Source: an uncultured Acidobacteriota bacterium (GTDB lineage Bacteria; Acidobacteriota; Vicinamibacteria; Vicinamibacterales; JAKQTR01). Taken from it: a stretch of 64,000 nucleotides of DNA. The stretch spans positions 110,544 through 174,543 of the forward strand of contig CAWICP010000019.1 of the NCBI GenBank assembly GCA_963834645.1. The letters are read 5' to 3'. Positions 3,693-31,700 of this stretch are shown here, piece by piece. Position numbers and translations under genes: made by a program. Below the pieces are notes generated by a model that was given only the letters and a program-made list of their open reading frames with translations, made no database searches and was not told the DNA's origin. How positions within the stretch are numbered: the first letter of the stretch is position 1; each line of letters begins with the position of its first letter.

Positions 3693-5353
3693 TCAGATGC
3701 CGCCGGCGGTCTTCTGGACACGCTCGAAGGCGACCAGCGCCTTCTGGTAGTCCAGGGCCGCCCGCAGTTCCGCGATTCTGCGCGTCGAGCAGGTCGCGCT
3801 GGGCCTGCACGACGAAGAAGTTGGTCGACATGCCGACCTCGAACTTGCTCTGCTCGTTCTCGAGGCGCTTCTCCGACAGCTCGCGGGCGGCGCGGGAGGC
3901 CTCGCATGCGCCTCAGCGTGCTCTCCACCTGCAGCGCCGCGTTGGTCACCTCGGTCGCCACCGTCAGTTCGAGCGCCCGAATCTGGGCCTGGGACTGCTG
4001 GTACTGCAGCTTCGCCCGGGCGTACGCCGCCTCCTGCGCGCTCTTGCCCAGCGGGTAGGAGAACGTCATGCCGACGGTCCAGTTGGGATAGTCGAACTGC
4101 CGCATCATGGCGAACGCCTCGGGCCAGCCGCCGGGGATCGTCCCGACGACGACGCCGCCCTCGCGGATGAACTGATTGCCGCCGAGGCCGCGGGTGCCGA
4201 GCGTGGCCGTGGCGTTCAGGGCGGGCATCATCTGGTTGCGGAGGTACTGGATGTTGACGTCGTTGCTCGCCAGGTTCTTGCGGGCCGTCACCAGGTCGGT
4301 CCGCTGGTCGAGCGCCGTCGTCACGGCCGCCTCGAGGATCGATCGTCGCGGGCTGGACCTGCACCATGTCGATCGGGTCGATGGTGGCTCTCCAGACCGG
4401 GTCGGTCGGTGTCGCTGACGATGAGGCGCTTGAGCACCAGCTCCGCCGTGCGCCGCGTGGCCTCGGCCTGCGGTCAGCGTCTGGCGCCGCGTGGCGGCCT
4501 CGGCCTGGGCCGAGATGATGTCCATCGGCGCGAGCGTGCCCACCTCGACGCGGACCCGGTTGTCCTCGACGAGCTTCTCGGCCAGCGCGAGCGACTGCTT
4601 CGCGGCCTCGATCGCCCGGATCGCGGCGAGCAGATCCCAGTAGGCGTTCTTGGTGGTCGCGGTGAGTTGTGATCCGGGTCAGCAGCGTGATGTCCGAGAT
4701 CTCGCGCGTGATGGTGCCGGTCCGCAGCTGGTTGCGCGTGGTGTCGATCTTGAAGTCCCGGAGCAGCGGCTGGGTGATCGTGGCCGTGAGCTGCGTCGTG
4801 TACTGCGGGTTCAGCGTCGCGAACGTGCTGGTCGTGTTCGTGCGCGCGTTGTTGAACGCCGCCGTGTAGGTCGTGCCGAACCAGGGCAGGGTCTGGGCGA
4901 TGTTGACGTTGGCGTTGGCCGTCTCGTTCGTCACCCGGCTGCCGCCGTTCAGCAGGCTGGTGGGCAGCGGCATGGTCGAGTTGGCGTTCAGCGTGCGAAT
5001 TCAGCGTCGGCCGGTACGCGCCGCGGGTCTGCGCGAGCGTCAGGTCCTGCAACTGCGGGTTGAGCCGCTCGACGGACAGCTCGATGTTGTTGTCGAGCGC
5101 CATCTTGACGGCCTGTTCCACCGTCAGCTGGATGACGGGCCGCGCCTCCGCGCGCTCCTCCAGCGTCTTCTGCTGCGCCGGGACGGGCTGCGCCTGGCCT
5201 TCCGTGAACTTCTCCCTGGCGTATTTCACCAGTTCGTCGACGCGAGCCTGCTCGCGGGCTGCGGCAGCCCCGGACTGCGCCTGGGCGAATGCGCCGGAGC
5301 GGGATCGCGAGCGCAAGCGCCGCGATGCCCACGATGAGTGCGACACGTGCCAA
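3693..5353 (-). pseudogene. TolC-family outer-membrane efflux channel; at least 8 frame breaks as sequenced
   Basis: The gene starts at TTG 5353 with signal peptide ARVALIVGIAALALAIPL. It continues as LTVEQAVKMALDNNIELSVERLNPQLQDLTLAQTRGAYRPTLNS (ORF 4474..5346) and LPWFGTTYTAAFNNARTNTTSTFATLNPQYTTQL...ISDITLLTRIT (3693..4973). Next come NAYWDLLAAIRAIEAAKQSLALAEKLVEDNRVRVEVGTLAPMDIISAQAE and LEAAVTTALDQRTDLVTARKNLASNDVNIQYLRNQ...LELTVATEVTNAALQVESTL (3650..4543). It ends with MSTNFFVVQAQRDLLDAQNR (3619..3831) and IAELRAALDYQKALVAFERV, stop 3693. Breaks are near 5298, 5005, 4665, 4470, 4410, 4340, 3900 and 3775. Confidence 0.8.
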
Positions 5354-5400
5354 TCCTCTTCACGGAACTCCTCCCTGGTGAGGGGGTTATCCTGTCTCGG

Positions 5401-5836
5401 CTACCTGGTGGGCTGTCGGCGGATCTGGCGGCGTTCCTGCTCCCAGCGCTCGTGCAGGGCGTTCATCTTCGCACGCTGTTCGACGGTCAGGATCTGGTGC
5501 ATCCGGTAGATCATCAGCGTGCGGGATCTTCGCCAGCTCCGCCCGCGAGTGCTCGACCTGGTCCACCATCTTCATGACGTCGCCCTCGGGCGCCACGCCC
5601 TCGGCGATGGTCTTCGACAGGCGGGCCTCGAGCCGGTCCAGCTCTTCCTTGCCGGTGGTGAGCGTCGGGCGCAGGCCCTGGTACACCTCCTCGAGCCGCG
5701 CGATCTGCTCGGGCGACAGGACCAGGTCGGCCTTGAACCTGTCGGACTGCCACCACTTGAAACCCTGGGCGCCCGCCGCGGCGGGGACGGCCAGGACGAG
5801 AACCAGACACCAGATGACGCCGCGCCGGATAGACAT
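5401..5836 (-). pseudogene. Periplasmic Spy/CpxP-like LTxxQ-motif protein; one frame break (~5520)
   Basis: ATG 5836 opens MSIRRGVIWCLVLVLAVPAAAGAQGFKWWQSDRFKADLVLSPEQIARLEEVYQGLRP...VEHSRAELAKI (ORF 5387..5929). The sequence continues in another frame as RTLMIYRMHQILTVEQRAKMNALHERWEQERRQIRRQPTR, stop TAG 5401. It has a signal peptide and two L(S/T)xxQ helices. Confidence 0.7.
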
Positions 5837-5891
5837 GGCGGTCTTACACCTCCGCTTCGCCTGGGAATTACGACCGGGCGGGGCGGAGTGT

Positions 5892-7094
5892 TTACCGGGG
5901 CGCCGGGGCGGGATCGGCGAAGGCGGCAAGCTTGAGAATCGTGGCGCCGACGAGGTTGTCCGGCGTCGACGCCCCGGCCGTCAGGCCGATCGAGAGCGGC
6001 CCCGTCCGCCGGGAGCCATCCGCGCGTGGCCACCTCGGTCCTGCTGACCGGCCGGCCAGTGCCGGATCTCCTCCGGCGACACGAGGCAGGCGTCGTCGGC
6101 GATGTGGTAGGTCGGGACCCGGTCCGCGCAGATCCGCGCCAGGTTCAGGGTGTTGCTGCTGTTGTAGCCGCCGACGACGACCATCAGGTCGATCGGGTGA
6201 GTCGCCGCAGCAGCGCTGACCACCGCGTCCTGCCGGTCCTGGGTGGCGCTGCAGATGGTGTCGAACGCGCGATAGTGCTCGGCGAGCGCCTCGGCGCCGT
6301 AGCGCTCGCCGCCAGCGCCTGCCGGAACATCTCGCCGATCTCGAGCGACTCGGTCATCAGCATCGTGGTCTGGTTGGCCAGGCCGATCCGCTCCAGGTCC
6401 CGATCCGGGTCGAACCCCGGCGAGGCCGCCTCCGCGAAGCGCCCGAGGAAGGCCGCGCGGTCGCCGCCGCCGCGGATGTAGCGCGCAGACGTCGGCGGCC
6501 TCCGCCCGGTCGAGGACGACGAGATAGGGGCCGCTGGGCGGCTTGAGGGCCTGGGACGCCGTCGCCCGGGTCTCTTCGTGGTGGATCTTGCCGTGGATGA
6601 CGGAGGTGAACCCGTCCTCCGCGTAGCGCCGGACGTTCTTCCAGACGTTGAGCACCGATCCGCACGTCGTGTCGACCAGCGTGCAGCCCTGCCGGTCGAA
6701 TGCCGCCAGCTGCGCGACGGTGACGCCGAAGGCCGGGAGGATCACGACGTCGTCGGGTCCGAGCGCCTCGGGCGACTCGCCGGGGTCGTCGAGGAACCGG
6801 ATGCCGCTCGCGCGCAGCTTGTCGTTGACGTGCGGGTTGTGGATGATCTCGCCCGTCAGGTAGACGCGCCTGTCCGGGAAACTTCCGGCGCGACTGGTAG
6901 GCGTAGTCCACCGCCCGGTCGACGCCGTAGCAGAAGCCGAATTCGCGCGCGAGATGCAGCGTGAGCCGGCCGGAGCGGAACGTGAAGTCGGTGGCCTTGA
7001 GCTCGTCGACCAGCGCGCTGCGATAGTCCTGCGCGAGTTCGCCGGCGACGGCCGCCTTCAGGTCGAGGCCTTTGCGGAAGATCACGGACGGCAT
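5892..7094 (-). pseudogene. ispH: 4-hydroxy-3-methylbut-2-enyl diphosphate reductase (IspH/LytB, long form); at least 5 frame breaks as sequenced
   Basis: ATG 7094 opens MPSVIFRKGLDLKAAVAGELAQDYRSALVDELKATDFTFRSGRLTLHLAREFGFCYGVDRAVDYAY. It continues as DRRVYLTGEIIHNPHVNDKLRASGIRFL...[61 protein letters not shown]. Later pieces are [18 protein letters not shown]...[51 protein letters not shown]...MVVVGGYNSSNTLNLARIC and PLSIGLTAGASTPDNLVGATILKL, stop TAA 5892. Breaks are near 6876, 6475, 6300, 6050 and 5995. Confidence 0.85.
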
Positions 7095-11386: not shown

Positions 11387-12298
11387 ATGATCCGGATCGG
11401 CATCGATCTTGGCGGCACCAAAATCGAAGGCATCGCGCTCGCGGCGAACGGCGAGGCCCTGGCGGGCCGGCGCGTCCCGACGCCGCGCGACGATTACGGC
11501 GGCACGGTGCGCGCGATCGCCGCGCTGGTCGGCGCGCTCGAGTCGGAGGCGGGCTCGCGCGGGACGGTGGGCATCGGCATGCCCGGCGCCATCTCGCCGG
11601 CGACGGGCCTGGTCAAGAACGCCAACTCCATGTGGCTCATCGGGCAGCCGCTGCAGCAGGACCTCGAGCGCGCCCTGGGCCGGCGCGTGCGGCTGGCCAA
11701 CGACGCCAACTGCTTCGCCCTGTCGGAGGCCTGCGACGGCGCGGGCGCCGGCGCGGAGGTGGTCTTCGGCGTCATCATCGGCACCGGGACCGGCGGCGGC
11801 GTCGTCGTGAGGCGCCAGGTGCTCACGGGGCCCAACGCCGTGGCGGGAGAATGGGGGCACAACCCGCTGCCGTGGCCGGAGCCGGAGGAGACGCCGGGGC
11901 AGGACTGCTACTGCGGCCGGCGGGGGTGCATCGAGACGTTTCTGTCGGGCCCGGGCCTCGCCCGCGATCACGAACGCGTGACCGGCGCGCGGATGAGCAG
12001 CGAGGCCATCGCCGCCCGCGCCGCCGGAGGCGACCCGCACGCCGAGGCGACGCTCCGCCGGTACGACGCGCGGATGGCGCGGGCGCTGGCGAGCATCATC
12101 AACGTGCTCGATCCCGACGTCATCGTGCTCGGCGGCGGGCTGTCCAATCTCGACCGCCTGTATACGGAAGTCCCCGCGCAGTGGGCGAGGTGGGTGTTCT
12201 CGGATCGCGTCGACACGCGGCTGGTCCGGCCTCGCCACGGCGATGCCAGCGGCGTGCGGGGCGCGGCGTGGCTCTGGCCGCTGCCAAATCCCATCTGA
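11387..12298 (+). CDS. mak: ROK-family sugar kinase, Mak-type manno(fructo)kinase
   Basis: The ORF is intact and collinear with my recollection of E. coli Mak. Matching blocks include MIRIGIDLGGTK, PTPRDDY, GIGMPGAISPATGLVKNANS, VRLANDANCFALSEA and AGEWGHNPLPW. Further blocks are CYCGRRGCIETFLSG, NVLDPDVIVLGGGLSN and HGDASGVRGAAWLWP. The ATG 11387 start is chosen by homology; the track start GTG 11372 is possible. Confidence 0.85.
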   Translation: MIRIGIDLGGTKIEGIALAANGEALAGRRVPTPRDDYGGTVRAIAALVGALESEAGSRGTVGIGMPGAISPATGLVKNANSMWLIGQPLQQDLERALGRRVRLANDANCFALSEACDGAGAGAEVVFGVIIGTGTGGGVVVRRQVLTGPNAVAGEWGHNPLPWPEPEETPGQDCYCGRRGCIETFLSGPGLARDHERVTGARMSSEAIAARAAGGDPHAEATLRRYDARMARALASIINVLDPDVIVLGGGLSNLDRLYTEVPAQWARWVFSDRVDTRLVRPRHGDASGVRGAAWLWPLPNPI

Positions 12299-12391: not shown

Positions 12392-14176
12392 ATGAATACG
12401 GATCTCGTCATCGGAATGGCCGGCTCGGGCGGCGACGGCATCGTGTCGGCGGGTGAATCGCTGCTGACCGCGGCCGCGCTGCTCGGCTATCACGGCGTGC
12501 TGACCAAGAGCTTCGGCCCCCAGATCCGCGGCGGCGAGTCCAGCTTCCGCCTGCGGCTGTGCACGGAGAAGGTCCTCAACCCGGGCGGGTCGCTCGACAT
12601 CGCCGTCGCCCTGAACTGGGAGGACTTCCTGAAGTTCGGGGCCGAACTGCCCGTCGGCGGCCAGACCACGGTCGTCTACGACAGCAACACCAACGTGGCG
12701 CCCGACAAGCTGCCCCTCGTGGGCGTGACGCCGGCCGAGGTGCTGAGCGTGCCGATCGAACAGATGGCCCGCGAAACCGGCGGAAGCGACCGCGCCAAGA
12801 ACACGGTCGTGCTCGGGCTGATGTCGGGGTGGATGGGCATCGGCCGCGACGAGGTGATCGCCGGCATCCGCAAGCGGCTGTCGAAGAAGGGCGCCGAGAT
12901 CGTCGAGCGGGCCGAGAAGGCGTTTCTCGCCGGCCTCGAGTACGCGCAGCAGCATCCGCTCAAGACCGATCGGATGATGGGGGAGCCGCCCGCAACCGGC
13001 GCGAAGTTCGTCGTCGACGGCAACGACCTCTGCGCGGCGGCGGCCATTGTCGCCGGCTGCGACTTCTTCGGCGGCTACCCGATCACGCCCTCGTCGGAAA
13101 TCATGCACTTCCTCGGCCGCGAAATCTGGAAGTACGGCGGGACGATGCTGCAGGCGGAGGACGAGATTGCCGGCATCGGCGCCGTGGTCGGCGCCTCGTT
13201 CGCCGGCAAGAAGGCGATGACCGCGACGTCCGGGCCGGGCATGTCGCTGAAGACGGAGATGCTCGGCCTGGCCAGCATCGCGGAGCTGCCGCTGGTGTGC
13301 GTGAACGTGCAGCGCGGAGGTCCGTCGACCGGGATCCCGACCAAGGGCGAGCAGTCCGATCTGTTCCAGGCGGTCTTCTCGGCGCACGGCGACGTCATCC
13401 GCCCGGTGCTGGCCGCCGTCAGCGCCGAGGACATGTTCCCGATCACCATCGAGGCGTTCAACCTGGCGGAGTACTACCAGACGCCGGTCATCATCCTGTC
13501 GGACCAGGAGGTCGGGCAGCGCAAGGAAACGGCCGAGCCCATCGACGCGGCCGCCATCAAGCTGGTCGAGCGGCAGAAGCCGACGGGGAAGGAACTCGAG
13601 CAGTACACGCGGTTCCGCTTCACCGAGACGGGCATCAGCCCCATCAGCCATCCCGGCATGAAGGGCGGCAACTACCTGGCCTCCGGCATCGAGCACAACG
13701 AGCAGGGCGCCCCGACCGCCAGCGGCGAGATGCACAGCCGCATGAACGACAAGCGGCTCAGGAAGTTCGATCCGCTGAAGCAGCGGCGGGACCTGTTCAT
13801 CGTGGAAGGCAGCGCCGACGCGCCGCTCGGCCTCATCAGCTGGGGCAGCGTGGCGGGCGTCGCGATCGAGGCCTTCCGGATGGCCGTCAAGCAGGGCCTC
13901 CAGGTGAAGCTGCTGGTCCCGCGGCTGCTGTATCCCGTCGCCGAAGCGGTCTACCAGGAGTTCTTCGCCTCCATCACGCGCGGCCTCGTCGTGGAGCAGA
14001 ACCACCAGAGCCAGTTGTACCGCCTGCTGCGCATGTTCGTCGACGTGCCGCGCGGCATCGAGACCCTCGCGAAGAGCGGATCGAATCCCATCACGCCCCA
14101 GGAAGTCGTCGACCGCCTGCGGCAGATTTCGCTCGCGCTGCAGCGCGACACGCACCAGCAGCCCTCCGAGGGCTAG
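12392..14176 (+). CDS. korA: 2-oxoglutarate/2-oxoacid:ferredoxin oxidoreductase, fused gamma-alpha subunit
   Basis: This is an intact 594-aa ORF. Recognised blocks are GSGGDGIVSAGESL...FGPQIRGGES (gamma part), then GNDLCAAAAIVAGCDFFGGYPITPSSEI and TSGPGMSLKTEMLGLASIAELPLVCVNVQRGGPSTGIPT. Confidence 0.9.
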   Translation: MNTDLVIGMAGSGGDGIVSAGESLLTAAALLGYHGVLTKSFGPQIRGGESSFRLRLCTEKVLNPGGSLDIAVALNWEDFLKFGAELPVGGQTTVVYDSNTNVAPDKLPLVGVTPAEVLSVPIEQMARETGGSDRAKNTVVLGLMSGWMGIGRDEVIAGIRKRLSKKGAEIVERAEKAFLAGLEYAQQHPLKTDRMMGEPPATGAKFVVDGNDLCAAAAIVAGCDFFGGYPITPSSEIMHFLGREIWKYGGTMLQAEDEIAGIGAVVGASFAGKKAMTATSGPGMSLKTEMLGLASIAELPLVCVNVQRGGPSTGIPTKGEQSDLFQAVFSAHGDVIRPVLAAVSAEDMFPITIEAFNLAEYYQTPVIILSDQEVGQRKETAEPIDAAAIKLVERQKPTGKELEQYTRFRFTETGISPISHPGMKGGNYLASGIEHNEQGAPTASGEMHSRMNDKRLRKFDPLKQRRDLFIVEGSADAPLGLISWGSVAGVAIEAFRMAVKQGLQVKLLVPRLLYPVAEAVYQEFFASITRGLVVEQNHQSQLYRLLRMFVDVPRGIETLAKSGSNPITPQEVVDRLRQISLALQRDTHQQPSEG

Positions 14177-14204
14177 GCCCCGGACGCAGGAGAGGACGCG
14201 GGAC

Positions 14205-15090
14205 ATGAGCACGCTGACGGCGAAACCCATCGAGGACTACACCTCGAAGGACTACAAGAGCGACCTGAAGCCCATCTGGTGCCCGGGCTGCGGCGACTTC
14301 GGGGTGGTGCAGGCCATCTATCGCGCGCTGGCCAACATCGGCCGCGCGCCGCACGAGATCGCGTTCATTTCGGGCATCGGCTGCTCGAGCCGCATTCCCG
14401 GCTACACGACGGCGTACGGGTTCAACACCGTCCACGGCCGGTCGCTCCCGATCGCCCAGGGCATCAAGCTGGCCAATCCGGACCTGCTGGTGCTCGTGCG
14501 CGGGCGGCGACGGCGACGGCTTCTCGATTGGCGGCGGCCACGTCGCCCACGCGATCCGCCGCAACATCGACATCACGTACATCGTGATGGACAACCAGAT
14601 TTACGGGCTCACCAAGGGGCAGCTGTCGCCGACCTCGCGCCGGGGGCTCGCGACCGCCTCGTCCGCGCTCGGTTCGATGGAGAGCCCGGTGAACCCGCTG
14701 CTCTACGTCCTCGGATACGGCGCGCAGTTCGTGGCCCAGGGGACGCCGGCCGACATGAGCGGCCTCGCGACGATCATCGAGGAGGGCATCCGGTTCCCCG
14801 GGTTCGCCTTCATCAACGTGCAGTCGCCGTGCGTCACCTACGGGCAGGAAGACCAGATGCTCAAGGCGCAGAAGGCGACCATGCAGACGCTCGAGTCGCT
14901 GGGGCACGATCCCGCCGACCGCCTGGCGGCCATGAACCTGGCGCAGGCGTACGGCGAGAAGCTCTACACGGGCGTGTTCTTCCGGCAGCCCGAGCCGGGC
15001 CCGACCTTCGAGCGCCTCGCGCGCGAGCGCCAGGAGGCGCAGCGGGCCACGGTCTCGAGCCGGGCCGACGTGCTGAACGTGTTCCGCTGA
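14205..15090 (+). pseudogene. korB: 2-oxoacid:ferredoxin oxidoreductase beta (TPP-binding) subunit; one frame break (~14500)
   Basis: The first piece is MSTLTAKPIEDYTSKDYKSDLKPIWCPGCGDFGVVQAIYRALA...GIGCSSRIPGY...LANPDLLVLV (ORF 14205..). It continues as AGGDGDGFSIGGGHVAHAIRRNIDITYIVMDNQIYGLTKGQ...FINVQSPCVTYG (ORF 14584..15090). Confidence 0.85.
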
Positions 15091-15104
15091 AGAAGCCGTA
15101 GTCG

Positions 15105-15544: not shown

Positions 15545-16018
15545 GTGCAGGACGTGGTGATCCGGCGGGCCGCGGGTGACGATACGCGGTGGGCGGCCGG
15601 CCTGATGGCCTCGTCCGATCCGTGGATGACCCTCGGCCGCGGCTTCGACGCCTGCCTCGCGGCCTGCACGTCCACGCTCGATGTGCTCGAGATTGCCGAG
15701 TCCGACGGCGAGCGGTGCGGGCTCGTCCTCGTACGGCCGGCCGGCGTGGCCGGCGCGCCCTACATCGTGTCGATCGCGGTCGCCCCGGCGTTTCGGAGCC
15801 GCGGCATCGGCGCCGCGCTGCTCGACCACGTCGAGCGCGCGTACGCCGGGCGGTCGCGGCACCTGTTCCTCTGCGTGTCCTCCTTCAACCCGCGCGCCCG
15901 GCGATTCTACGAACGGCGAGGGTTCGAGGCCGTCGGCACCCTCAAGGCGTTCCTCATCGACACCGCCGACGAGATCCTGATGCACAAGCGCCTCGCCTCC
16001 GGGGCCAGACCGGCCTGA
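15545..16018 (+). CDS. GNAT-family N-acetyltransferase
   Basis: GTG 15545 opens VQDVVIRRAAGDDTRWAAGLMASSDPW...YIVSIAVAPAFRSRGIGAALLDHVERAY...NPRARRFYERRGFEAVG, which contains the acetyl-CoA-binding motif A (R/QxxGxG/A). The start is chosen by the typical GNAT N-terminus; ATG 15605 is the alternative. Confidence 0.75.
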   Translation: MQDVVIRRAAGDDTRWAAGLMASSDPWMTLGRGFDACLAACTSTLDVLEIAESDGERCGLVLVRPAGVAGAPYIVSIAVAPAFRSRGIGAALLDHVERAYAGRSRHLFLCVSSFNPRARRFYERRGFEAVGTLKAFLIDTADEILMHKRLASGARPA

Positions 16019-16131
16019 TGGGCCGGACCCGGCAGGCGTCAGCCATTGCGGGGCGCTCCGGGGTACAATGCGAAGTTCCCGCCGCGGGCGGGGCGGCCGG
16101 CGGTCCCCGTCGGGCCGCCATCGAGGCATGC

Positions 16132-19100
16132 ATGTCCACTGACTTCCGCCGAGTCGCGATCGTGAACCGCGGCGAACCCGCGATGCGGTTCATTCATGCG
16201 GTCCGCGAATACAACCTGGAGCATCGGAGCGGCATCCGCGTCATCGCCCTGTTCACGGAGCCGGACCGGCACGCCCGGTTCGTGCGCGAGGCCGACGAGG
16301 CCGTCGACCTCGGGCCGTCGACCTACGTGGACGACGCCGACGGGCTGAGGCGCCCGGCGTACCTCGACTACCGGGTCCTCGAGCGGGGCCTGGCCGAGGC
16401 GCAGGCGGATGCGGTCTGGACGGGGTGGGGATTCGTGGCCGAGCGGCCCGAGTTCGCGGAGATGTGCGAGCGCCTGGGCGTGGTCATCATCGGTCCCGAC
16501 AGCGGGTCGATGCGGCGGCTGGGCGACAAGATCTGCGCGAAGCGCCTGGCCGAGCAGGCGGGGATTCCGGTGATTCCGTGGGGCGACGCGCCCGCCGACA
16601 CGCTCGATGCCGCGCTGGCGCAGGCCGAGGCGCTCGGCTACCCGGTGGCGCTCAAGGCGAGCGGGGGAGCCGGCGGCCGCGCGATCCGGCGCGTCACGTC
16701 TCCGGCGGACCTGGAGGCCGCGTATGGCCCGCTCCGGCGCGAGGCGGCGCGCGTCTCGAACGACCGCACGGTGTTCCTCGAGCGGTGGATGGCCGGGATG
16801 CGCCACATCGAGGTGCAGATCCAGGCGGACCGCCACGGGACGATCTGGGCCATCGGGACCAGAGACTGCTCGCTGCAGCGCCGGTTCCAGAAACTCGTGT
16901 CGGAGGCGCCGGCGACAGGCCTCACCGCGAACCTCGAGACGGCGCTCACCGACGCCGCCGTGCGGCTCGTGGCCGCCGCGCAGTACCGGGACCAGGTGAG
17001 CGTCGAGTTCCTCGTGGATCTCTCGGGACGGTTCTATTTCCTGGAGGCGAACACGCGTCTCCAGGTCGAGCACGTCGTCACGGAGCTCACCAGCGGCATC
17101 GATCTGGTGAAGCTCGAGATCGACGTGGCCCGGGGAGGCCGCCTCGCGGCCGTGCCGCCGCCCAGCTCCGGGCATGCCATCGAGGTCCGCCTGAACGCGG
17201 AAGACCCCTACAGCGGATTCGCGGCCTCTCCGGGCGTCGTGACGCTGTTCCGGACGCCGACCGGACCGGGGCTTCGTGTGGACACCGGGATCGCGGAGGG
17301 CAGCTCGATGCCCCCGGAATTCGGATCGATGTTCGCCAAGCTCGCGGCCCGCGGCCACAGCAGGGACGAGGCGCTGGGCCGCCTGAAGCGCGCGCTCGCG
17401 GACAGCGTCCTGGTCGTGTCCGGCGGGCCCGACCAACCGCACGTTCCTCCTGCAGGTGCTGGAGCGGGCGGAGGTGCATCGCGGCATCGTCGACACGGGC
17501 CTGCTCGACAGGCTGACGATCGGCGAGGCCTCGCTGTCGGACCGGCACGCGAAGATCGCGCTGCTCCAGGCCGCCATCGAAGTGTACGAGTCGGAGCATA
17601 CCGAGGAGGTGTCGGCCTTTTTCGCGTCGGCCGCGCGCCTCCGGCCGACCGCTCGCGCCGGCGTCGGACGGCCGGTGGAATTGAGCTATCGCGGACATCG
17701 CTACGAATTGCGCGTGTTCCGCACCGGAGAGGGACGATACCGGATCGCGGCCGGCGCCCAGCGCATCGATGTCGGCGTCGAACGCGACGGTCCGTGCGAG
17801 CGCTGGCTGTCCACCGATGGCCGCCGCTACCGTGTGCTGGCCGCGATGACCGGCTACACGCTGCTCATCGAGGTGGAGGGCATCCCGCACGCGATCTCCC
17901 GCGCCGACGAGGGGGTGGTGCGCGCCGGGTCTCCGGCGGTCGTCGTGTCGGTGCATGTCGAGCCGGGCGATCGGGTGGCGGCCGGCGAGCGGCTCGTGAT
18001 GGTCGAGGCCATGAAGATGGAGACCGCCATCCTCGCGCCCTTCGCCGGCGCGGTCCGCCAGGTGTTCGTGCTGCCGAACAGCCAGGTCAGCCCGGGCGCT
18101 CCGCTGGTCCACCTCGAAGCGGCCGCCGATGGGCCGGCGCGAAAGACCGGGCCCAGGATCGTCTTCGACGGCGCCAGGGCTGTCGCCGCGCGTGACGGAG
18201 GGCGGCCGGTCTCCAGGGGCCGCGCCCTGTTGAAAGGCGTCAAGGCCGGCCTGAAGGAGCTCAAGCGCGCCGCTCCCCAGCCCTCGCTGGACGTCCTGCC
18301 CGTGCTGCGATCGGTGGTCCTCGGGTTCGACCTGGACGCGCCGGAAGTGGATCGCGTGCTCCAGGAGTACGGGCGGCTGATCGAGTCGCTGCCGCCCGAC
18401 GACGCCGACCTGCTCAGCGCCGAAGACGACCTGCTCCGGGTGTTCGTGGACGTGCGGGCGGTGTTCGGCCGCCAGTCCGCGGAGGAGGACGAGGGCGGCC
18501 CGTCGCTCAGTTCGGAGCAGTACCTGTTCAGGTACCTCCGGACGCTCGAATCACAGGGCGCCGATCTGCCGGCGGCGTTCCTCGAGCAGCTCCGGTCGGC
18601 TCTGCAGCACTATCACGTGTCGACGCTCGAGCCGACGCCTGCCCTCCGCGACGCCCTGCTGGCGCTCTTCAAGGGACACCAGCGCAGCGATCTCCAGGTG
18701 CCCGTCGTGCAGGCCGTGCTCGAACGGCGTCTGGCGATGGCGCGCGCGCTGGCTCCGGGCAGCCCGGCGTTTCTCCGGATCATCGAGCGGCTGATCGCCG
18801 CCGTGCAGGGCCGGTTTCCGGATCTCGCCGACCTCGCGCGGGACGTGCATTACCGTTACGTCGAGCAGCCGGAGTTCGAGCGGATGCGCGGAGCGGTGCA
18901 GGTGCGCATGCTCGACCTGCTGGCCCGCCTGGCCTCCAGTCCGGAGGGCCCGGAGGCCGACGCGTGGCGCGCGGAGCTCGTGGCGTGCCCGCAGCCGCTT
19001 CGGACAGGCTTCGCGGCGAGCCTCGAGGGGATGCCCCGGGCGGTCCAGCGTCTGGCCCTCGAGGTGATGATTCGCCGCGATTACCGGTTCCGCCAGCTCG

Positions 19101-21787
19101 AGGACGTCCGTCACGCGGCCGGCGCGGAGTGGCCCATCGTGCTGGCGTCCTACCCGCATGACGGCCAGCTCATCGACGTGGTCGCGACCGGCGGCCAGTT
19201 CGAGGACGCGATGCGGGTGCTCGGCGGCGCTGAGGAATCAGGTGTCCTCGGTGCCAGGCGATCACGAGTGCGTGGCCGAGATCTACCTGTGGGGCGCAGC
19301 GACCGCCAGTCTCGAGCCGATCGCCTCCATGCTCGGGGACCAGCTGGAGCAAGTTGGCTTCGACCGCCCGCTGCGCCGCGTCGTGTTCGTGCTCGTGCCC
19401 GTGCCCGGCGAGGGAGCGGGCTCGGACCTCCAGTTCCTCACGTTCCGGCCGTTCGGCCCGGGGTTCCGTGAGGAGAAGGTGTTCCGCGGCCTCCATCCGA
19501 TGCAGGGCAAGCAACTCGAGTTCTCGCGCCTGCGCCACTTCTTTCTCGAGCGTCTGCCGGCGTCGGAAGACGTGTATCTCTTCAAAGGCGTGGCCCGCGA
19601 GAACCCGCGGGACGAGCGGCTCTTCGCGCTGGTCGAGGTGCGCGAGGCGACGCCGGTTCGCGACGGCGCGGGCCGGCTGACTGAGCGTGCCCTACTTCGA
19701 GCGGATGGCGCTCGAGGCGTTCACGGCCGTGCGCAGGGCCCAGCTGAAACGCCCGGGCGAGGAGCGGTGGCAGTGGAACCGGGTGACGCTGTTTGTCCGC
19801 CCTCCGCTCGATCTGAGCCGCAGCGAAATCGGGGACCTCGCGGCCAGGATGTCGACGCATGCCGCCGGCCTGGGCCTCGAGAAGATCGTCATCCGCGGCA
19901 CCATGCCGGACGAACGCGGCACGATGGCCGACGGCTCGGCCACCATCACGCTGACGGCCGGCAAGGCGCCGCTGCTGCGGTTCTCGGAGGCCTCCGGCGA
20001 GCCGCTTCGCACGCTGTCCGATTACGACCAGCGCGTGGTGCGCATGCGGCAGCGCGGGCTGACGTATCCGTACGAAATCGTGCGGATGATGACGCCCGAG
20101 CACGCCGGCCCCGCGTCCGCGATCCCGGCGGGCTCGTTCGTGGAACTCGACCTTGACGACAGCCGGCGCCCTCGTGCCCGTCGAGCGGCCGTACGGCCAG
20201 AACACCGCCAACATCGTGGTCGGCCTGCTCACCAACCGGACGGCGACCTGCCCCGAGGGCATGACGCGCGTCGCGCTGCTCGGCGATCCGAGCCGCGAAG
20301 TCGGGTCGCTCGCGGAGCCCGAGTGCCGGCGCATCCTCGGCGCCCTCGACCTGGCCGAGTCGATGGGCGTGCCGCTCGAGTGGTACGCCCTCTCGGCCGG
20401 CGCGAAGATCTCGATGGAGAGCGGCACGGAGAACATGGACTGGATCTCCCGCGTGCTCCGCCGCCTCATCGACTTCACGCAGGCCGGCGGCGAAGTGAAC
20501 ATCGTCGTGACGGGCATCAACGTCGGCGCCCAGCCCTACTGGAACGCCGAGGCGACGATGCTGATGCACACCCGCGGCGTGCTGATCATGACGCCGGAGG
20601 GCGCGATGGTGCTCACCGGCAAGATGGCCCTCGACTACTCGGGCTCGGTGTCGGCCGAGGACAACATCGGGATCGGCGGCTACGAGCACATCATGGGGCC
20701 GAACGGCCAGGCGCAGTACCGGGCGCGGGATCTGCGCGACGCGTGCCAGATCCTGCTGCGCCACTACGCGCATGCCTACCGGATGCCCGGCGAGCGGTTC
20801 CCGCGGCGCGCCGCGACCGTGGACCCGCCGGCGCGGGACATCCGCGGCTTCCCGCACGACAGCCTGGAGGACGGGTTCGCCACCGTCGGCGACGTGTTCT
20901 CGGACGCCGCGAACCCGGGCCGCAAGCGCCCCTTCGACATCCGCCGGGTCATGCTGTCGGTGTGCGACGAGGACCATCCGCCGCTCGAGCGGTGGGCCGG
21001 ATGGCGGGACGCCGAGATCGCCGTCACGTGGGACGCGCGCATCGGCGGGTACCCGGTCTGCATGATCGGGTTCGAGTCGCGGACGGTGCCGCGATTCGGC
21101 CTGGTGCCGGCCGACGGCCCCGAGCAGTGGACCTCGGGCACGCTGTTCCCGATGTCGTCGAAGAAGATCGCGCGCGCCATCAACGCCGCGACGCTCAACA
21201 GGCCGCTGGTCATCCTGGCGAACCTGTCGGGCTTCGACGGATCGCCGGAGTCGATGCGCCGGCGGCAGCTCGAATTCGGGGCGGAGATCGGGCGGGCGGT
21301 GGTGAATTTCAAGGGCCCGATCGTCTTCGTCGTCGTGTCGCGCTATCACGGGGGCGCCTTTGTCGTCTTCTCGAAGACGCTGAACGCGAACATGGAGGTG
21401 GCGGCGCTCGAGGGGAGCTTCGCCTCGGTGATCGGCGGCGCCCCGGCGGCGGCGGTCGTGTTCGCCCGCGAGGTCGACGGGCGGACGAAGAAAGACCCCC
21501 GCGTGAGGGAGCTGGAGGCCGCGGTGAAGGCGGCGGCGACCGACGGCGATCGCGTCAGCCGCAGGACCGCGCTCGCGGACGTGATCAAGACGGTGCGGTC
21601 GGAGAAGCTCGGCGAGGTGGCCGACCAGTTCGACCGCATTCACAGCGTGCACCGCGCGCTCGAGGTCGGGTCGCTCGATCGCATCATCAGCGCGGCGGAG
21701 CTGCGGCCGTACCTGATCGACGCCATCGAGCGCGGGATGGCACGCGAAATGGAGCGTTGGCAGGCATGCACACCCCCATCGCGGTAA
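16132..21787 (+). pseudogene. Single-chain multidomain biotin-dependent acyl-CoA carboxylase (BC - BT-like - BCCP - ~670-codon unknown region - CT), ~1,885 codons; four frame breaks (~17436, ~19228, ~19687, ~20165)
   Basis: The BC domain reads MSTDFRRVAIVNRGEPAMRFIHAVRE...ALKASGGAGGRAIRRV...YFLEANTRLQVEHVVTE. It is followed by TNRTFLLQVLERAEVHRGIVDTGLLDRL. The BCCP reads VVSVHVEPGDRVAAGERLVMVEAMKMETAILAPFAG. A long region follows (ORFs 17456..19471, 19158..20156, start of 19687..23484). The CT domain reads VPVERPYGQNTANIVVG...ALSAGAKISMESG and LVILANLSGFDGSPESMRRRQLEFGAEIGRAVVNFKGPIVFVVVSRYHGGAFVV (ORF 20153..21787). Confidence 0.85.
18008..18019 (+). other. Biotinylation motif A-M-K-M of the carboxylase BCCP domain (biotinyl-Lys codon 18014-18016)
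   Basis: The sequence gcc atg aag atg is in frame within ...GERLVMVEAMKMETAILAPF..., the canonical (E)AMKM context. Confidence 0.85.
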
Positions 21788-22582
21788 TCCTGGCCCGGGG
21801 ACTGGGCACGCGGATGCGGCGCGAGGATGCCGCCGCCGCCATCGGCGAGGACCAGGCGAAGGTGGCCGCGACCGGCGTCAAGGCGATGATTCCCATCGGC
21901 CGGCCGTTCCTGGACTACCTCCTGAGCGGCCTGGCGGACGCGGGGCTCAGCGAGGTGTGCCTCGTCGTCGGCCCCGAGCACGGCGCCGTGCGCGAGTACT
22001 ACGGCGGCGCGTCGGCGCCGACGCGGGTCCGCATCGAGTTCGCCGTCCAGGCGGAGCCGCTGGGCACCGCCGACGCCGTCGCGGCGGCTGCGGACGTGGT
22101 CGGCTCGCGGGAGTTCCTGGTCCTGAACTCCGACAACTACTACCCGGTCGAGGCCTACCGCGCACTCGCGGCCCTGGACGGACCGGGCCTGGTGGCCTTC
22201 GAGCGCGACGCGATGATCCGCGACGGCAACGTGCCCGCGGACCGCGTCCGGCAGTTCGCCGTCGTGCGGATCGCCGGCGACCAGTCGTTGCTCGACATCA
22301 TCGAGAAGCCCGACGAGGCGGCGCTGGCGGCGTGCGGGAACGAGGTCTACCTGAGCATGAATTGCTGGCGCTTCGACTCGTCGGTGCTGGAGGCGTGCCG
22401 CCGCGTGCCGCTCTCCGCGCGCGGCGAACGCGAACTGACCGACGCGGTCCGTCTCGCCCGGCACGAGGCCGGCACGCGGTTCCGCGTGATCCGCATGAAG
22501 GCCGGCGTCCTCGACCTCTCGAGCCGCGGCGACATCGCCGAGCGTGGCCGGCCGCCTGGCGGGCGTCGAGGTCCGATTGTGA
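21766..22582 (+). pseudogene. Sugar-1-phosphate nucleotidylyltransferase (NTP_transferase/GlmU-RmlA fold); one frame break (~22540)
   Basis: ATG 21766 lies 22 nt inside the carboxylase 3' end. It opens MHTPIAVILARGLGTRMRRED...GVKAMIPIGRPFLDYLLSGLADAGLSEVCLVVG...AVQAEPLGTADAV...LVLNSDNYY, with the G-x-G-T-R signature. After the break it reads SVAGRLAGVEVRL, stop TGA 22580-22582. Confidence 0.75.
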
Positions 22583-23917
22583 TGGTGCCGACCGTCGAGG
22601 GCATCGACGCCGCCGGCCTCCGCGCCGAGGCCGCCGCCTCGAAGCGCGCGCTGTTCGCCCGCGCGCGCGCCGCCCTCCGGGCGGGAGGCCCGCCGCCGGC
22701 GGCCTTCTTCGTGCCCGGCCGCATCGAGGTGCTCGGCAAGCACACCGACTATGCCGGCGGCCGCAGCCTGCTGTGCGCGGCGGAGCAGGGGTTCTGCCTC
22801 GTGGCCGCCGCCAGGAGCGACCGGCGGGTCACCGTGGTGAACGCGGACACCGGGCGACAGGGCGGACCTCGCGCTGGCGCCGGACCTGCAGCCCGTGCTC
22901 GGGCACTGGAGCAATTACCCGGCCACGGTCCTCAGGCGCGTGGCGCGGAACTTCCCCGACGCCCGGATCGGCGCCGACCTCGCGTTTGCCAGCGACCTGC
23001 CGCCGGCCTCCGGGATGTCCAGTTCGAGCGCCTTCATGGTGGCCGTCTTCCTGGCGATGGCGGCGCTCAACGAACTCGATCGCGCGCCCGCCTACCTCGA
23101 GGCCATCGGCGCGCCCACCGACCTGGCCGGGTATCTGGGCACCGTGGAGAACGGCCGGACCTTCGGGCCGCTTGCGGGCGACACGGGCGTCGGCACGTTC
23201 GGCGGCAGCGAGGACCACACGGCCATCCTCTGCTGCCGGGCGTCGACGCTGAGCCAGTACCGCTTCGCGCCGGTCCACTTCGAGCGCGACGTGCCGATGC
23301 CCGGCCGCCACGTCTTCGCGGTCGCGTTCAGCGGCGTGCTGGCGGAAAAGACCGGCGCGGCGCTGGCGACCTACAACCGCGCGTCCCGGGCGGTGTCGCG
23401 GGTGCTGCAGATCTGGAGGGACGCGAGCGGCAGGCCGGCGCCCACCCTGGAGGCGGCGGTGACCGGGTGCGACGGGGCCGTTGACCAGATTCGCGAGGCC
23501 ATCGCCGCGTCGGGCGACACGGAGTTCGGCGCGGACCTCTTGCGGACGCGCTTCGACCAGTTCGTGCTCGAGAGCCGGACCATCGTGCCGGGCGCCGGCG
23601 ACGCGCTGCGCGACGGCGACCTCACCCGTTTCGGTGCGCTGGTCGACCAGTCGCAGGAGGCCGCCGAGGCCTGGCTCGGCAACCAGGTGCCCGAGACGGT
23701 CTGTCTCGCGCGTGAGGCCCGCCGCCTCGGGGCCGCGGCGGCGTCGGCCTTCGGCGCGGGATTTGGCGGGAGCGTCTGGGCGATGGTCGCCGGGGACGCG
23801 TGCGGCGAGTTCCTCCGCGAGTGGCGCCTCGCCTACGAGCGCGCGCACCCCGAGGCCGCGGCCCGGGCCGTGTTCTTCGAAACCTCACCGGGGCCTGCCG
23901 CGCTCCGGCTCGGGTGA
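22582..23917 (+). pseudogene. GHMP-family anomeric sugar kinase, galactokinase-like; one frame break (~22870)
   Basis: ATG 22582 shares its A with the upstream TGA. The first piece is FFVPGRIEVLGKHTDYAGGRSLLCAAEQGFCLV (galactokinase signature region). It continues as DLPPASGMSSSSAFMVAVFLAMAAL (GHMP motif 2) and ASAFGAGFGGSVWAMV (motif 3), in ORF 22895..23917. Confidence 0.8.
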
Positions 23918-23926
23918 GCCTGGCGC

Positions 23927-26585
23927 TCAGGCGCCCGGTGCCGAGAAGCTGGCCTTCAGCGCCCGGTAGTCGGTCTTGCCGGTGCCGAGCACCGGGATCG
24001 TCTCCACGTCGATGACCTGTCGGACATAGTGCAGCGGGCTCAGCCCCGCCTCCTTGATGAGCGCGTTGACCGCCTGGCGTTCAGCCGGGCGCCTCGTGAA
24101 CAGCACGACGTCGGGATGCTCAGGGTCGCCGACGGCCTCGACCGCGATGAGCGGGCCATCGTCGGCGTCGCCGAAGTGCCGCTGCAGGACGGCCTCGATG
24201 GCCGGAAGCGACACCATCTCGCCGCCGAGCTTGATGAATCGCTTGAGGCGCCCCTTGAAGGTGAGGCGGCCGTCGGCGGCCGCCGCCACCAGGTCTCCCG
24301 TCCGGTACCACGACCGGTCTTCGAAGGTCACAAACGGCGAGTCCCCCGCGTAGTTGAGGTAGCCGCCGAAGATGCTCGGCCCGCGCACCAGCAGCATGCC
24401 GGTCTCGCCCGGCCGCCACGCGCCGGGTCAGCTCGAGATCCACGATGGCGCCTTCCACCGACGCCATCAGCTTGCCGATGGTGCCCGGGACGGGCTCGTC
24501 CATGGGGTTCACGGCGACGACAGGCGAGCACTCCGTGATGCCGTAGCCCTCGAGCACGATCAGCGGAGGCCAGCGCTCGCCGAGCGTCGCGAAGAGGCTG
24601 TCCGGGCACTTCTCGGCGCCAATCACCGCGAGCCGGAGCGTGGAGAGTTGCCGGTCCGACGCGACGCGCACGATCCCGCCGAGGAACGTGGGCGTGCCGA
24701 AGAGCACCGTCGCCTTGTACGTGTCGATGACCCTGGCCAGGAGCGCCGACTCGGTGGGATTCGGATGAAACACGGTGCGCAGCCCCAGACACCAGGAGAG
24801 CAGCACCGTCGTGGTGAGGCCGAAGGAATGGAACGGGGGCAGGAAGCCGACGGTGATGTCGCGCTCCTCCAGTTGCCCCATTTTCAGAATGTCGGCGATG
24901 TTGGTGAGCAGGTTGCGGTGCGTCAGCGGCACGGCTTTCGGCAGGCTCTCCGACCCGCTCGTGAACAGGACGACGGCCGTCTCCGGAGGTGTCGCCCGCT
25001 CCAGCGATGCCCAGCTGATGCGGCTGGTCAGGGCCGCCCGGATCTTCTCGGCCGGCCTCACCGACGCCAGCACGTCCTCGACGAACAGGAAGGTGTCCTC
25101 GATGGCCGACAGGTCGATGCCCGAGGAGCCCAGCTTCGCGACCAGTGCCCGGGCGGTGACGACGGTCGCGACGCCGAGCGTGTCGAGCGAGTGCCGCAGC
25201 GCGCGCGTTCCCGCGGTCCAGTTCACCATGACCGGCGTCTTGCCGGCGAAGAGCGCGGCGAGCAGGAACACGGTGGCGCCCACCGAGGCGGGCATCATGA
25301 TGCCGACATACGGGCCCGGCAGCCGTTCGAGCTTCGGCTTGAGCACGAGCACGGCGGTGACCAGGTCGCGATAGGTGCGCGTGCCGCTCGACTGGTCGGC
25401 GAAGATCGGTTGGCGGGGCCGGGCGGCGGCCTGCTTCAGGAACACGGCGGTCAGCGTGTCGCCCGGCGGCAGCGTCAGGGCCGTCCGGTTTCCCGACGCG
25501 GCGAACCACGAGGCCGGCGGCGCCTTCAGATCCGAGGCCGTGTGGGACACGCCCTGCCCGGCCGCCGCCAGGACCACGTCGGCGACGGTCGTCAGGCTCT
25601 CCGGCGTGTCCACCGAGAAGCCGAACTCCTGCTGCAGCCACGTCACCAGTTCGGCCGTGGCGAGGCTGTCGAACCCGAGGTCCTTCGAGAGCTGATCGTC
25701 GATGGAGACCTCGGCCCGCCCGGACTCGTCTCGAAGATGCGCGAGCACCAGGTCGCGCGTCGCCGGAGCGACGTGCGTCGCATCCGAGCGCGGGGCCTCC
25801 CGCACGGGCTCGGGCATCTCGCGCGTGCCGCCTTTCTCCCAGAACCCGTAGGGCACGTAGGTGTTCCGTGCGGCGTGCTCGTTGTAGAAGCGCTCGAGGT
25901 AGCGGTTGATCTCGGCGCGCGTGCCCGTTCTCGGGAAATCCGCCGGCTCGACCAGCTCGACCGACATCCGCCGCCTGGGCATGAAGAAGATGCCGTTCTG
26001 CAGGAGGTACTTGATGCCGCGAGCCAGTGCGCTGCCGATGGCGGGCATCTCGCCGTCGAACCCGAGGCTGAAACTGCTGCCCCACAGGCCGTTGTGCCGC
26101 ACGAGGACGATGCGGACGTCCGGGACCGCCTTCACGAGCGTCTCGACGCCGCTCGCGCTGCCGATGTCTTCGAGGTACTGCCGCTTGAGGCGGCCGGCGG
26201 GGTAGAGCAGGATGTTCTCGCCGGCCTTCAGGCCATCGGCGATCTCCTGCAGCGCGGCGCGCGTGCGGTCGCGGGCGCCCGCTCCGCTGCGCTCCAGGTT
26301 GGGCAGGATGCGCGACCCGTAGAGCAGGGCGATGTAGCCGAACACCGTCCGGTTGACCTGGTGCTCGTCGGCGAGCGGGCGCAACTGGAACGCCGGGTAG
26401 AGGTGCGCCACGATGAACGCCGGGTCGAGCAGCGACGAGTGGTTCGGCAGGAAGAGAATCCCGCGCCGCCCCTTGCGCTTGACGGCGTCGAGCCCGCGGA
26501 GATCGATCCGGTACCGCAGTCCGATGATCGGGCGGGCGACGTAGGCGACGAGGCGGGTGACCACCGACACCACCAGAGCCAGCAT
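23927..26585 (-). pseudogene. Tri-domain lipid enzyme: PlsC-type acyltransferase - acyl carrier (PP-binding) - AMP-dependent acyl synthetase (Aas-like); one frame break (~24410)
   Basis: ATG 26585 is preceded by GGAGG. The acyltransferase part reads ILFLPNHSSLLDPAFIV...LLYPAGRLKRQ. The carrier part reads DDQLSKDLGFDSLATAELVTWLQQEFG. The adenylating part reads AVVLFTSGSESLPKAVPLTHRNL...VLEGYGITECSPV. After the break it reads PGETGMLLVRGPSIFGGYL...WYRTGDL...GRLKRFIKLGGEMVS...IPVLGTGKTDY (ORF 23927..24397). Confidence 0.85.
25665..25667 (-). other. Predicted phosphopantetheine-attachment Ser codon of the internal carrier domain
   Basis: This is the Ser of the LGFDSLATAEL motif, in frame with the 24120..26801 ORF. 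Confidence 0.7.
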
Positions 26586-26809
26586 GCAGCCTCCACGGGG
26601 ATGGAGAGAACGTACTAGAGACGGCGAGACTGGCGCAAGCACGCGGCGAGTGCCGCTGCAGCGCCCACAGCGCGTCGCGTCGGCGCGCCCGAGCCGCGCG
26701 ACGTGCCCGGTCGCGCGACGATCCCGCTGGCCACGCCGAGTCGGCCGGCAGGATCGTCCGGCGAGTCCCGAGTCCCGTCTCTCCCTGTCTGCAGGTATCA
26801 TGATGGGTC

Positions 26810-30415: not shown

Positions 30416-31700
30416 ATGTTGATGAGACTGGCGCTCGGCGTATCGGTGGCGGTGCTGGGTCTGGCCGCCGTGGCGGTCGCGCAGCAGGGTTCGCCCGCGA
30501 AAGATCCGGTGCGCGTGAAGTCGGACGCGATCCACGCGAAGGTCCTGACCCTCGACACGCACGTCGACATCCGGGGCGGCGGCGATTACGGCGTGCTGAC
30601 GCCGGGGCAGAAGTGCGACCTCGTGAAGATGCAGCAGGGCGGGGTGAAGGGCGTGTTTCTGGCCGCCTACGTCGGGCAGCGCCCGGCCTTCGACGCGGCG
30701 GCCTACAAGGCCGCCTACGATGCCGCCAGCAGGCAGTTCGACTTCCTGGACACGCTGACCGGGAAGGCGCGGCCGGAGATGTGCGCGTTCGCCGCGTCGC
30801 CGTCCGAGGTCGAGCGCGTGGCGAAGACGGGGAAGCGCGTGATCATGACCGGCCTCGAGAACGGCTACCCCGTGGGTGAGGACCTCGCCAACGTCAAGGC
30901 GTTCTATGATCGCGGCGCCCGTTACATCACGTTGACCCACAGCGGGCACAACCAGATCGGCGACTCGTCGAGCGACCGCAACCCGCCCCGCAACAACGGC
31001 CTGTCGCCCTTCGGGAAGCAGGTCGTCGCCGAGATGAACCGTCTCGGCATGATGGTGGACGTGTCCCACTCGGCGGCGACGACGTTCTGGGACGCCATCA
31101 AGCTGTCGAAAGCGCCCATCATCGCCTCGCACTCGGGCTGCAAGGCCGCTCCACGACGTCGACCGCAACCTCGACGACGAGCAGCTGAAGGCCCTGGCGA
31201 AGAACGGCGGCGTCGTCCAGATCGTGGCGCTGGCGTCGTACCTCAAGGCGGACTCGCCCGGGCGCGCGGAGGCCGTGCGCCAGCTGCGCGAAGAGCTCGG
31301 GATGCCTGCCGGCGGCCGGGGCCGGCAGGGCGGGCCGCCTTCGCAGCCGCTCACGCCGGAGCAGCAGGCCGACGCGCAGAAGCGCCGCGCGGCCTACATG
31401 GAGCGGATGCAGGCGATTGACGCGAAGTTCCCGTCAGCGTCGATCGCCGATTTCGTGAATCACATCGACCACGCCGTCAAGGTGGCGGGCATCGATCACG
31501 TCGGCATCGGCACGGACTTCGACGGCGGCGGCGGGTTCCCCGGTTTCAACGACCACTCGGAAGCGGCGAACGTGACGGAGGAACTGGTCCGGCGGGGCTA
31601 CTCCGAGCAGGACGTCGCGAAGATCTGGGGCGGCAACCTCATGCGAGTCTGGCGCGACGTGCAGAAGGTGGCCGAGCGGGAACAGACGGCCGCCCGGTAG
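30416..31700 (+). pseudogene. Membrane (renal-type) dipeptidase, peptidase family M19; one frame break (~31148)
   Basis: GGAGGG precedes ATG 30416, followed by a signal peptide. The first piece is LTLDTHVDI...GVKGVFLAAY...RYITLTHSGHNQIGDSS...GMMVDVSHSAATTFWDAIKLSKAPIIASHSGCKA. It continues as HDVDRNLDDEQLKALAKNGGVVQI...HVGIGTDFDGGGG...IWGGNLMRVW (ORF 31224..31700). Confidence 0.85.

Follow-up and report, generated by a model that had tools for sequence, protein, structure and literature searches.

A probable single-chain, eukaryote-type acetyl-CoA carboxylase gene in a soil acidobacterium of the Vicinamibacterales

This work concerns a 64-kb stretch of acidobacterial DNA (the window, meaning the whole stretch that was analyzed) and one gene within it, at positions 16132-21787, whose product resembles the single-chain acetyl-CoA carboxylase (ACC) of eukaryotes. 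Among bacterial single-chain carboxylases, the LCC type is much smaller, at ~120 kDa. It has no central domain and another domain order, forms a homohexamer and prefers long-chain substrates (PMC6491548). A closer system is SACE_4237 of Saccharopolyspora erythraea, an essential, homodimeric multidomain ACC characterized in 2019 (Livieri et al. 2019, PMC6491548). SACE_4237 can complement E. coli accB(ts). Its activity requires the dimeric state of ~400 kDa, and it uses acetyl- and propionyl-CoA as substrates, whereas palmitoyl-CoA is not carboxylated (PMC6491548). Members of the class it represents are proteins of ~200 kDa that are homologous to eukaryotic ACC along their whole length, the central region included, and the biotin carboxylase (BC) domain of the SACE_4237 type groups with that of eukaryotic ACC (PMC6491548, supplementary Fig. 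S3). Orthologues were given for actinobacterial families only, and the name 'actinobacterial homodimeric ACCs' was proposed (PMC6491548). A preliminary description of the window had presented the long single-chain bacterial class as new, which the 2019 characterization of SACE_4237 overturns (PMC6491548), on the terms that the description itself had set for a loss of novelty. In the searchable literature, we found no report of an acidobacterial or other non-actinobacterial eukaryote-like ACC.

We consider it highly probable that window 16132-21787 is one gene, intact in vivo, encoding a single-chain eukaryote-type ACC of 206 kDa, and that the breaks in its deposited frame are assembly errors. 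Since the window has a uniform G+C content of ~70%, with long open reading frames (ORFs) consequently present in all frames, ORF lists alone say little. A frame plot of G+C at third codon positions (GC3), combined with tblastn searches using relatives, traces a coding signal on the + strand from the ATG at 16132 to the stop at 21785-21787 through four frame switches, all in the +1 direction in the frame plot. Deletion of one base per junction yields an ORF of 5,652 nt that encodes 1,883 aa with zero internal stops. The frame plot, the tblastn searches and the reconstructed ORF thus agree with the earlier joining of four breaks into one frame. Pfam E-values down to 3e-51 for the reconstructed protein lie beyond chance. 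The host is a soil acidobacterium of the Vicinamibacterales, not an actinobacterium; the gene matches its flanks in GC content and lies within 20.9 kb of synteny with a metagenome-assembled genome (MAG) of the Vicinamibacterales, which upholds the view that it is native.

The reference for the error check was L007, a contig from a short-read Vicinamibacterales MAG (JAWOGY010000086.1) that is syntenic with window 9303-30186 at ~90% nucleotide identity. Its carboxylase ORF (NCBI protein MFO7692639.1) is uninterrupted at 1,884 aa and is 90% identical to the reconstructed protein from end to end, with a single one-residue gap across 1,884 columns. tblastn with database relatives recovered the same four junctions, each crossed by uninterrupted relatives. 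Inspection of the 20.9-kb alignment reveals 13 one-base insertions in coding DNA of the window, four of them in the carboxylase gene (0.71 per kb). The nine others (about 0.6 per kb) disrupt KorB (~14495), a nucleotidyltransferase (22540), a GHMP kinase (22855) and a minus-strand acyltransferase-acyl carrier protein (ACP)-ligase gene (24413), all of which are intact in L007, and a peptidase M19 gene beyond the aligned stretch is likewise split (~31050-31420). The breaks are thus contig-wide and not peculiar to the carboxylase gene. Because neighboring genes carry like insertions at similar density, dN/dS against L007 is 0.15 overall (0.08-0.24 in each inter-break segment), and the orthologue is intact, each of the four breaks is a single base wrongly inserted by an error-prone assembly. 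The frame-2 fragment of the gene has been publicly deposited as a 665-aa protein (P0001); therefore, the public assembly already contained the errors, which did not arise at a later stage. Species-representative genomes were also scanned with two central-domain motifs, and all locus counts given here refer to the best 80 of at least 506 confirmed relatives. Internal ORF breaks are found at 11 of the 47 loci from MFD 'contig_N' assemblies, which we take to be Nanopore MAGs of the Microflora Danica project, versus 1 of the 33 other loci.

Two biological explanations of the breaks were weighed. The first is a true pseudogene with four real frameshift mutations, a reading that is compatible with the presence of the breaks in the public assembly and with the deposition of the frame-2 fragment as P0001. 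This is very unlikely given that one-base insertions occur at equal density in unrelated neighboring genes, GC3 remains at least 0.85 throughout the shifted frames, purifying selection is seen in all inter-break segments, and an orthologue 90% identical is intact. The second, programmed ribosomal frameshifting, would account for the uniform direction of the four shifts, but +1 insertions are also seen across numerous unrelated genes of both strands, the sites have no common slippery motif, and the extra bases are absent from orthologues, leaving this explanation vanishingly improbable. Both were rejected on the neighbor-gene controls, dN/dS and the intact orthologue. At ~0.6 spurious one-base insertions per kb, frameshifted or pseudogene-like features on this contig should be discounted. 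Relative to the short-read L007, further extra-base sites in window 9300-31700 lie at 9585, 9620, 28520 and 29484; nearly all errors of the contig relative to L007 are insertions, and they fall outside long homopolymers.

The preliminary description also held that the protein is one chain, and this stands: the 1,884-aa orthologue is intact over all four breaks, and ~60 of the 80 related loci have a single ORF of 1,800-1,900 aa. The locus might otherwise comprise two genes, one encoding BC, the BC-carboxyltransferase interaction domain (BT), the biotin carboxyl carrier protein domain (BCCP) and the N half of the central domain (CD) in ~1,070-1,110 aa, and one encoding the C half of the CD and the carboxyltransferase (CT) in ~770-800 aa. 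Many relatives on long contigs are indeed called as proteins of ~1,000-1,111 aa plus ~750-800 aa, and an 800-aa CD(C)-CT ORF is seen in three independent short-read assemblies. Three-frame inspection, however, resolves the boundaries in loci L001, L002 and L003 into frameshifts or paired compensating frameshifts within continuous homology. Frame 0 of the window is open across 19071-20156, covering the entire putative boundary zone, and the 800-aa form (L004-L006), which keeps a decayed remnant of BC, arose by deletion and is unlike the arrangement in the window. We regard a two-gene locus as extremely unlikely and rejected it on the frameshifts in L001-L003 and on the single ORF in most loci.

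Pfam matches the reconstructed single chain in the order Biotin_carb_N, CPSase_L_D2, Biotin_carb_C, Biotin_lipoyl, ACC_central, Carboxyl_trans (Table 1). Together with an unbroken phmmer alignment of residues 5-662 to residues 8-651 of Pseudomonas aeruginosa methylcrotonyl-CoA carboxylase (MCC) alpha (3u9s_A, 350 bits), which covers BC-BT-BCCP, this order bears out the proposed layout of BC-BT-BCCP-central-CT. The BC domain holds a KASGGAGGR glycine loop, RDCSLQRRFQK, EANTRLQVEH and GHAIEVRLNAEDP. The TNRTFLLQVLERAEVH... stretch, earlier listed as a separate segment, spans the first break and is in fact the C-terminal tail of BC, where Biotin_carb_C covers residues 351-459; the TNRTFLLQVLE... 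stretch is part of the same tail. The EAMKME motif noted before is present in BCCP, and its predicted biotinyl lysine, Lys628, is encoded by AAG at 18014-18016.

Between BCCP and CT, the preliminary description had found ~670 codons with no recognizable motif. This region scores 40.4 bits against Pfam ACC_central (PF08326), where the cut-off is 23.2 bits (1.6e-10, residues 1077-1171), and phmmer searches of the PDB with the CD return eukaryotic ACC central domains only, in weak but collinear matches. An AlphaFold2 model of the N half (window 18116-19225; pLDDT 79) is mostly helical with a small beta-sheet at the end. The top 19 PDB matches of this model in Foldseek are all eukaryotic ACC central domains, with probabilities of 0.72-1.00 and E-values from 8e-5 to 3e-2, and unrelated proteins start only at E > 0.3. 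The C half was modeled together with CT through P0081, a relative of 91% identity, and the top 50 Foldseek matches of that model are all eukaryotic ACC. Yeast and human ACC holoenzymes are matched at E ~1e-41 over ~1,000 columns and CT-only entries at ~1e-28 over ~690 columns; since the alignment to holoenzymes extends over more columns, the C half of the CD aligns too. On this sequence and fold evidence, the central region represents a diverged form of the ACC central domain, homologous to AC1-AC5, or CDN-CDL-CDC1-CDC2, of eukaryotic ACC and presumably non-catalytic.

The CT domain carries the motifs LSAGAKISME, ANLSGFDGSPESM and SRYHGGAFVV, and the C-lobe signatures named in the preliminary description, LVILANLSGFDGSPESM and SRYHGGAFVV, are both present. 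Its stated affinity to eukaryotic ACC is likewise borne out by phmmer, a similarity ranking, in which yeast CT is matched at 6e-22 and a bacterial propionyl-CoA carboxylase (PCC) beta subunit at 2e-8. Bit scores against yeast CT are 78 for the window CT and 73 for the CT of a MAG labeled Actinomycetota. These values are indistinguishable; therefore, neither CT is evidently closer to eukaryotes. The BC domain, in a similarity ranking rather than a tree, has bacterial MCC alpha and AccC as its best PDB matches at ~300 bits. By such similarities, the protein resembles a bacterial module of the alpha type to which a eukaryote-type CD-CT module has been joined.

How does this protein compare with the described systems? 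Like SACE_4237, it is a single bacterial polypeptide of ~200 kDa with the order BC-BCCP-central-CT, a center homologous to yeast AC1-AC5 and a CT of eukaryotic ACC affinity, and its expected functional model, by analogy, would be a dimeric acetyl-/propionyl-CoA carboxylase. It differs in coming from Acidobacteriota (Vicinamibacterales), whereas the SACE_4237 orthologues named in PMC6491548 come from actinobacterial families, and its identity to partial actinobacterial-labeled relatives is just ~35-50%. With eukaryotic cytosolic ACC (yeast Acc1p, 5CSL/5CSK/5I6E; human ACC1, 6G2D/8XKZ) it shares the domain order and the biotinyl-Lys motif, and the CD and CT folds of these enzymes are its best and only significant structural matches. 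In contrast to them, it is ~350-500 residues shorter (1,883 versus 2,200-2,400 aa), its 681-aa CD is strongly diverged, at ~15% identity in fold alignments, and its BC scores better against bacterial BCs. The N-terminal 662 residues are akin to the alpha subunits of MCC, PCC and ACC (P. aeruginosa MCC alpha 3U9S, mycobacterial AccA3, E. coli AccC), but here the alpha-like module is fused via the CD to a eukaryote-type CT, with no separate beta partner. The protein also departs from LCC of the M. avium or Pseudomonas type, being of 206 kDa with a 681-aa CD between BCCP and CT, and from the canonical multi-subunit AccA/AccB/AccC/AccD enzyme, in that its orthologues are one ORF. Searches of the PDB with phmmer and Foldseek returned no AccA/AccD-type match for CT. 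NCBIfam has no full-length model, its subunit and domain models match only below their own cut-offs, and NCBI names the intact orthologue MFO7692639.1 merely 'carboxyl transferase domain-containing protein'. On all testable features of architecture, the window gene is an acidobacterial member of a known, biochemically characterized enzyme class. As an ordinary member of a described class, the gene itself is of little direct significance.

Several points weigh against this assignment. The error correction is by proxy, from the orthologue L007. The likeness to SACE_4237 is drawn from the published description of that enzyme. Pfam ACC_central spans just ~95 of the 681 CD residues, the remainder coming from structure prediction with moderate TM-scores of 0.46-0.60. 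Eukaryotic ACC BC is absent from the top 60 PDB matches of the BC domain, and with BC ranking nearest to bacterial MCC alpha and AccC, the protein does not appear uniformly eukaryote-like. Finally, the substrate and oligomeric state proposed for the acidobacterial members are carried over by analogy from SACE_4237.

Table 1. Features of the carboxylase gene, its assembly breaks and its surroundings (window positions unless a locus is named)
Feature	Position	Strand	Basis or remark
Single-chain carboxylase, whole CDS	16132..21787	+	1,883 aa once four spurious bases are removed
Shine-Dalgarno-like GAGG motif	16123-16126	+	5' of carboxylase ATG
BC ATP-grasp, residues 1-459	16132..17509	+	Pfam Biotin_carb_N, CPSase_L_D2, Biotin_carb_C
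BT (BC-CT interaction), residues ~460-590	17510..17902 (approximate bounds)	+	phmmer alignment to MCC alpha
BCCP/biotinyl, residues ~591-662	17903..18118	+	Pfam Biotin_lipoyl 5.5e-13, residues 600-661
CD, residues 663-1343, 681 aa	18119..20163	+	Pfam ACC_central, PDB phmmer, AF2 + Foldseek
CT, N + C lobes, residues 1344-1883	20165..21784	+	Pfam Carboxyl_trans 1e-30, residues 1374-1871
Insertion 1, GGCGG[G]CCCGACC, frame 1->2	17427..17430	+	P0002 (intact) and L007 unbroken here
Insertion 2, frame 2->0	19222..19226	+	P0005, P0016-18 and L007 unbroken here
Insertion 3, frame 0->1	19684..19689	+	P0081 (91% identical) and L007 unbroken here
Insertion 4, frame 1->2	20161..20164	+	P0081 and L007 unbroken here
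GNAT acetyltransferase, probable GTG start, upstream	15545..16018	+	Conserved neighbor in closest relatives
Nucleotidyltransferase, downstream	21766 to ~22582	+	Overlaps carboxylase stop by 22 nt; frameshifted in assembly
GHMP-family kinase, downstream	~22579-23917	+	Frameshifted in assembly; conserved neighbor in window clade
PKS-ACC-PPTase arrangement	L003 1-13292; L024-L086 (most loci), ~1-6800 and ~12450-13200

To place the window protein among its relatives, we considered their distribution together with a neighbor-joining tree of 61 full-length sequences aligned with the fast settings of MAFFT. With the two central-domain motifs, confirmed relatives were found in at least 506 species-level genomes. 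The best 80 of these are nearly all Acidobacteriota (Terriglobia, Vicinamibacteria), with some labeled Myxococcota/'delta proteobacterium', Dormibacterota or Actinomycetota. A CD-CT profile matched 2,980 representatives of 50%-identity clusters, 1,012 of them at E <= 1e-30 and Oligoflexia included; the best 150 matches are mostly 1,750-1,910 aa long. The tree contains two clades, a large clade of Terriglobia in which the gene is flanked by polyketide synthase (PKS) genes and a PKS-free clade that holds the window protein, whose full-length identity to the PKS-linked clade is 50-54%. It is possible, and we advance it tentatively, that the eukaryote-type single-chain ACC is a large, ancient bacterial family and not an 'actinobacterial' invention, with a large radiation in Acidobacteriota that has so far gone unreported and further members among Myxococcota, Oligoflexia and Dormibacterota. 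Among the loci sampled, the family splits into Terriglobia members in PKS operons and Vicinamibacterales members free of PKS, the window protein included, and in the latter the enzyme is perhaps the sole housekeeping ACC of the cell. If this is true, the proposed actinobacterial origin of eukaryotic ACC would need revisiting with acidobacterial sequences. The breadth of the family beyond Actinobacteria, at more than 500 species-level genomes that are mostly acidobacterial, bears on the origin of both eukaryotic ACC and its central domain. Among the best bacterial-type full-length matches is also a 1,995-aa protein (P0228) that EukProt (EP00899) files under the green alga Mesostigma viride, which could reflect either bacterial contamination of that assembly or horizontal transfer.

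In the Terriglobia and related MAGs, a giant PKS resembling polyunsaturated fatty acid synthases (KS-AT-KS-KR-DH, >2,800 aa) lies directly 5' of the ACC gene and a 4'-phosphopantetheinyl transferase (PPTase) directly 3' (~58 of the 80 loci). No description of this PKS-ACC-PPTase arrangement was found in the literature. The arrangement looks like an operon for dedicated malonyl-CoA supply, and the coupling in Terriglobia suggests that the supply serves an uncharacterized acidobacterial lipid or polyketide pathway. PKS domains are absent from the whole 64-kb window, and a PKS-linked role for the window gene was rejected for this reason.

Homology and the conserved catalytic motifs suggest a reaction cycle for the window enzyme. 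The ATP-grasp BC domain would carboxylate the biotin on Lys628 of BCCP with MgATP and bicarbonate. BCCP would then swing over to the C-terminal CT domain, which would move the carboxyl group onto the alpha-carbon of a short acyl-CoA. By analogy with SACE_4237, acetyl-CoA is the most likely substrate, giving malonyl-CoA, and propionyl-CoA may be a second one. BT and the 681-residue CD would take no part in catalysis and would serve as scaffolds that hold BC and CT in place. Like SACE_4237 and eukaryotic ACC, the enzyme is expected to work as a homodimer.

The physiological substrate could instead be other than acetyl-CoA, namely propionyl-, butyryl- or another acyl-CoA, or the enzyme could be dedicated to supplying extender units to a specialized lipid or polyketide pathway, in place of a housekeeping role. 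The promiscuity of SACE_4237 for acetyl- and propionyl-CoA is consistent with such a role, as are the embedding of the Terriglobia sister clade in PKS-ACC-PPTase operons and the neighborhood kept by the window clade, in which the carboxylase gene is accompanied by the nucleotidyltransferase and GHMP kinase genes and has an acyltransferase-ACP-acyl-ligase gene next to it. We nevertheless hold it to be rather unlikely: the window has no PKS genes across its 64 kb, even a PKS-linked role would most simply need malonyl-CoA and thus acetyl-CoA carboxylation, and the CT is similar to those of ACC.

Throughout the PKS-free clade, the ACC gene is followed by the nucleotidyltransferase and GHMP kinase genes, with the GNAT gene and korAB upstream in the closest relatives. 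The nucleotidyltransferase and GHMP kinase, a pair of the sugar-1-phosphate activation type, are linked to ACC at 55-83% identity across the clade (L007-L019), and in the closest relatives the pair overlaps the ACC stop codon. Farther downstream, a convergent gene of ~900 aa (window ~23927-26640, minus strand) encodes a tri-domain protein with acyltransferase, ACP and AMP-dependent ligase parts. It is Aas-like (2-acylglycerophosphoethanolamine acyltransferase / acyl-ACP synthetase), of a lipid-remodeling kind, and is conserved in L007, L008, L009 and L012. Upstream lie a KorAB-like 2-oxoacid:ferredoxin oxidoreductase alpha/beta pair (window 12392-15101) and a ROK-family kinase (11387-12280), in an arrangement syntenic with Vicinamibacterales relatives. 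Compared with L007, the window has an intergenic insertion of 86 nt (16026-16111) just 5' of the carboxylase start, with a -10-like TACAAT inside it; in L007, only 21 nt separate the GNAT stop from the ACC start.

The truncated form of the gene recurs at three loci. L004 (8975-12403), L005 (5540-8969) and L006 (1830-5258), from the three short-read assemblies mentioned above, have the 800-aa CD(C)-CT ORF in identical form. In front of it is a BC remnant that is decayed and internally deleted; residues ~495-1090, comprising BT, BCCP and the N half of the CD, are gone. The ORF has kept its place between a KR-DH gene and the PPTase gene. It may be a relic, or it may encode a CT-only protein that has taken on another role, such as that of a decarboxylase.

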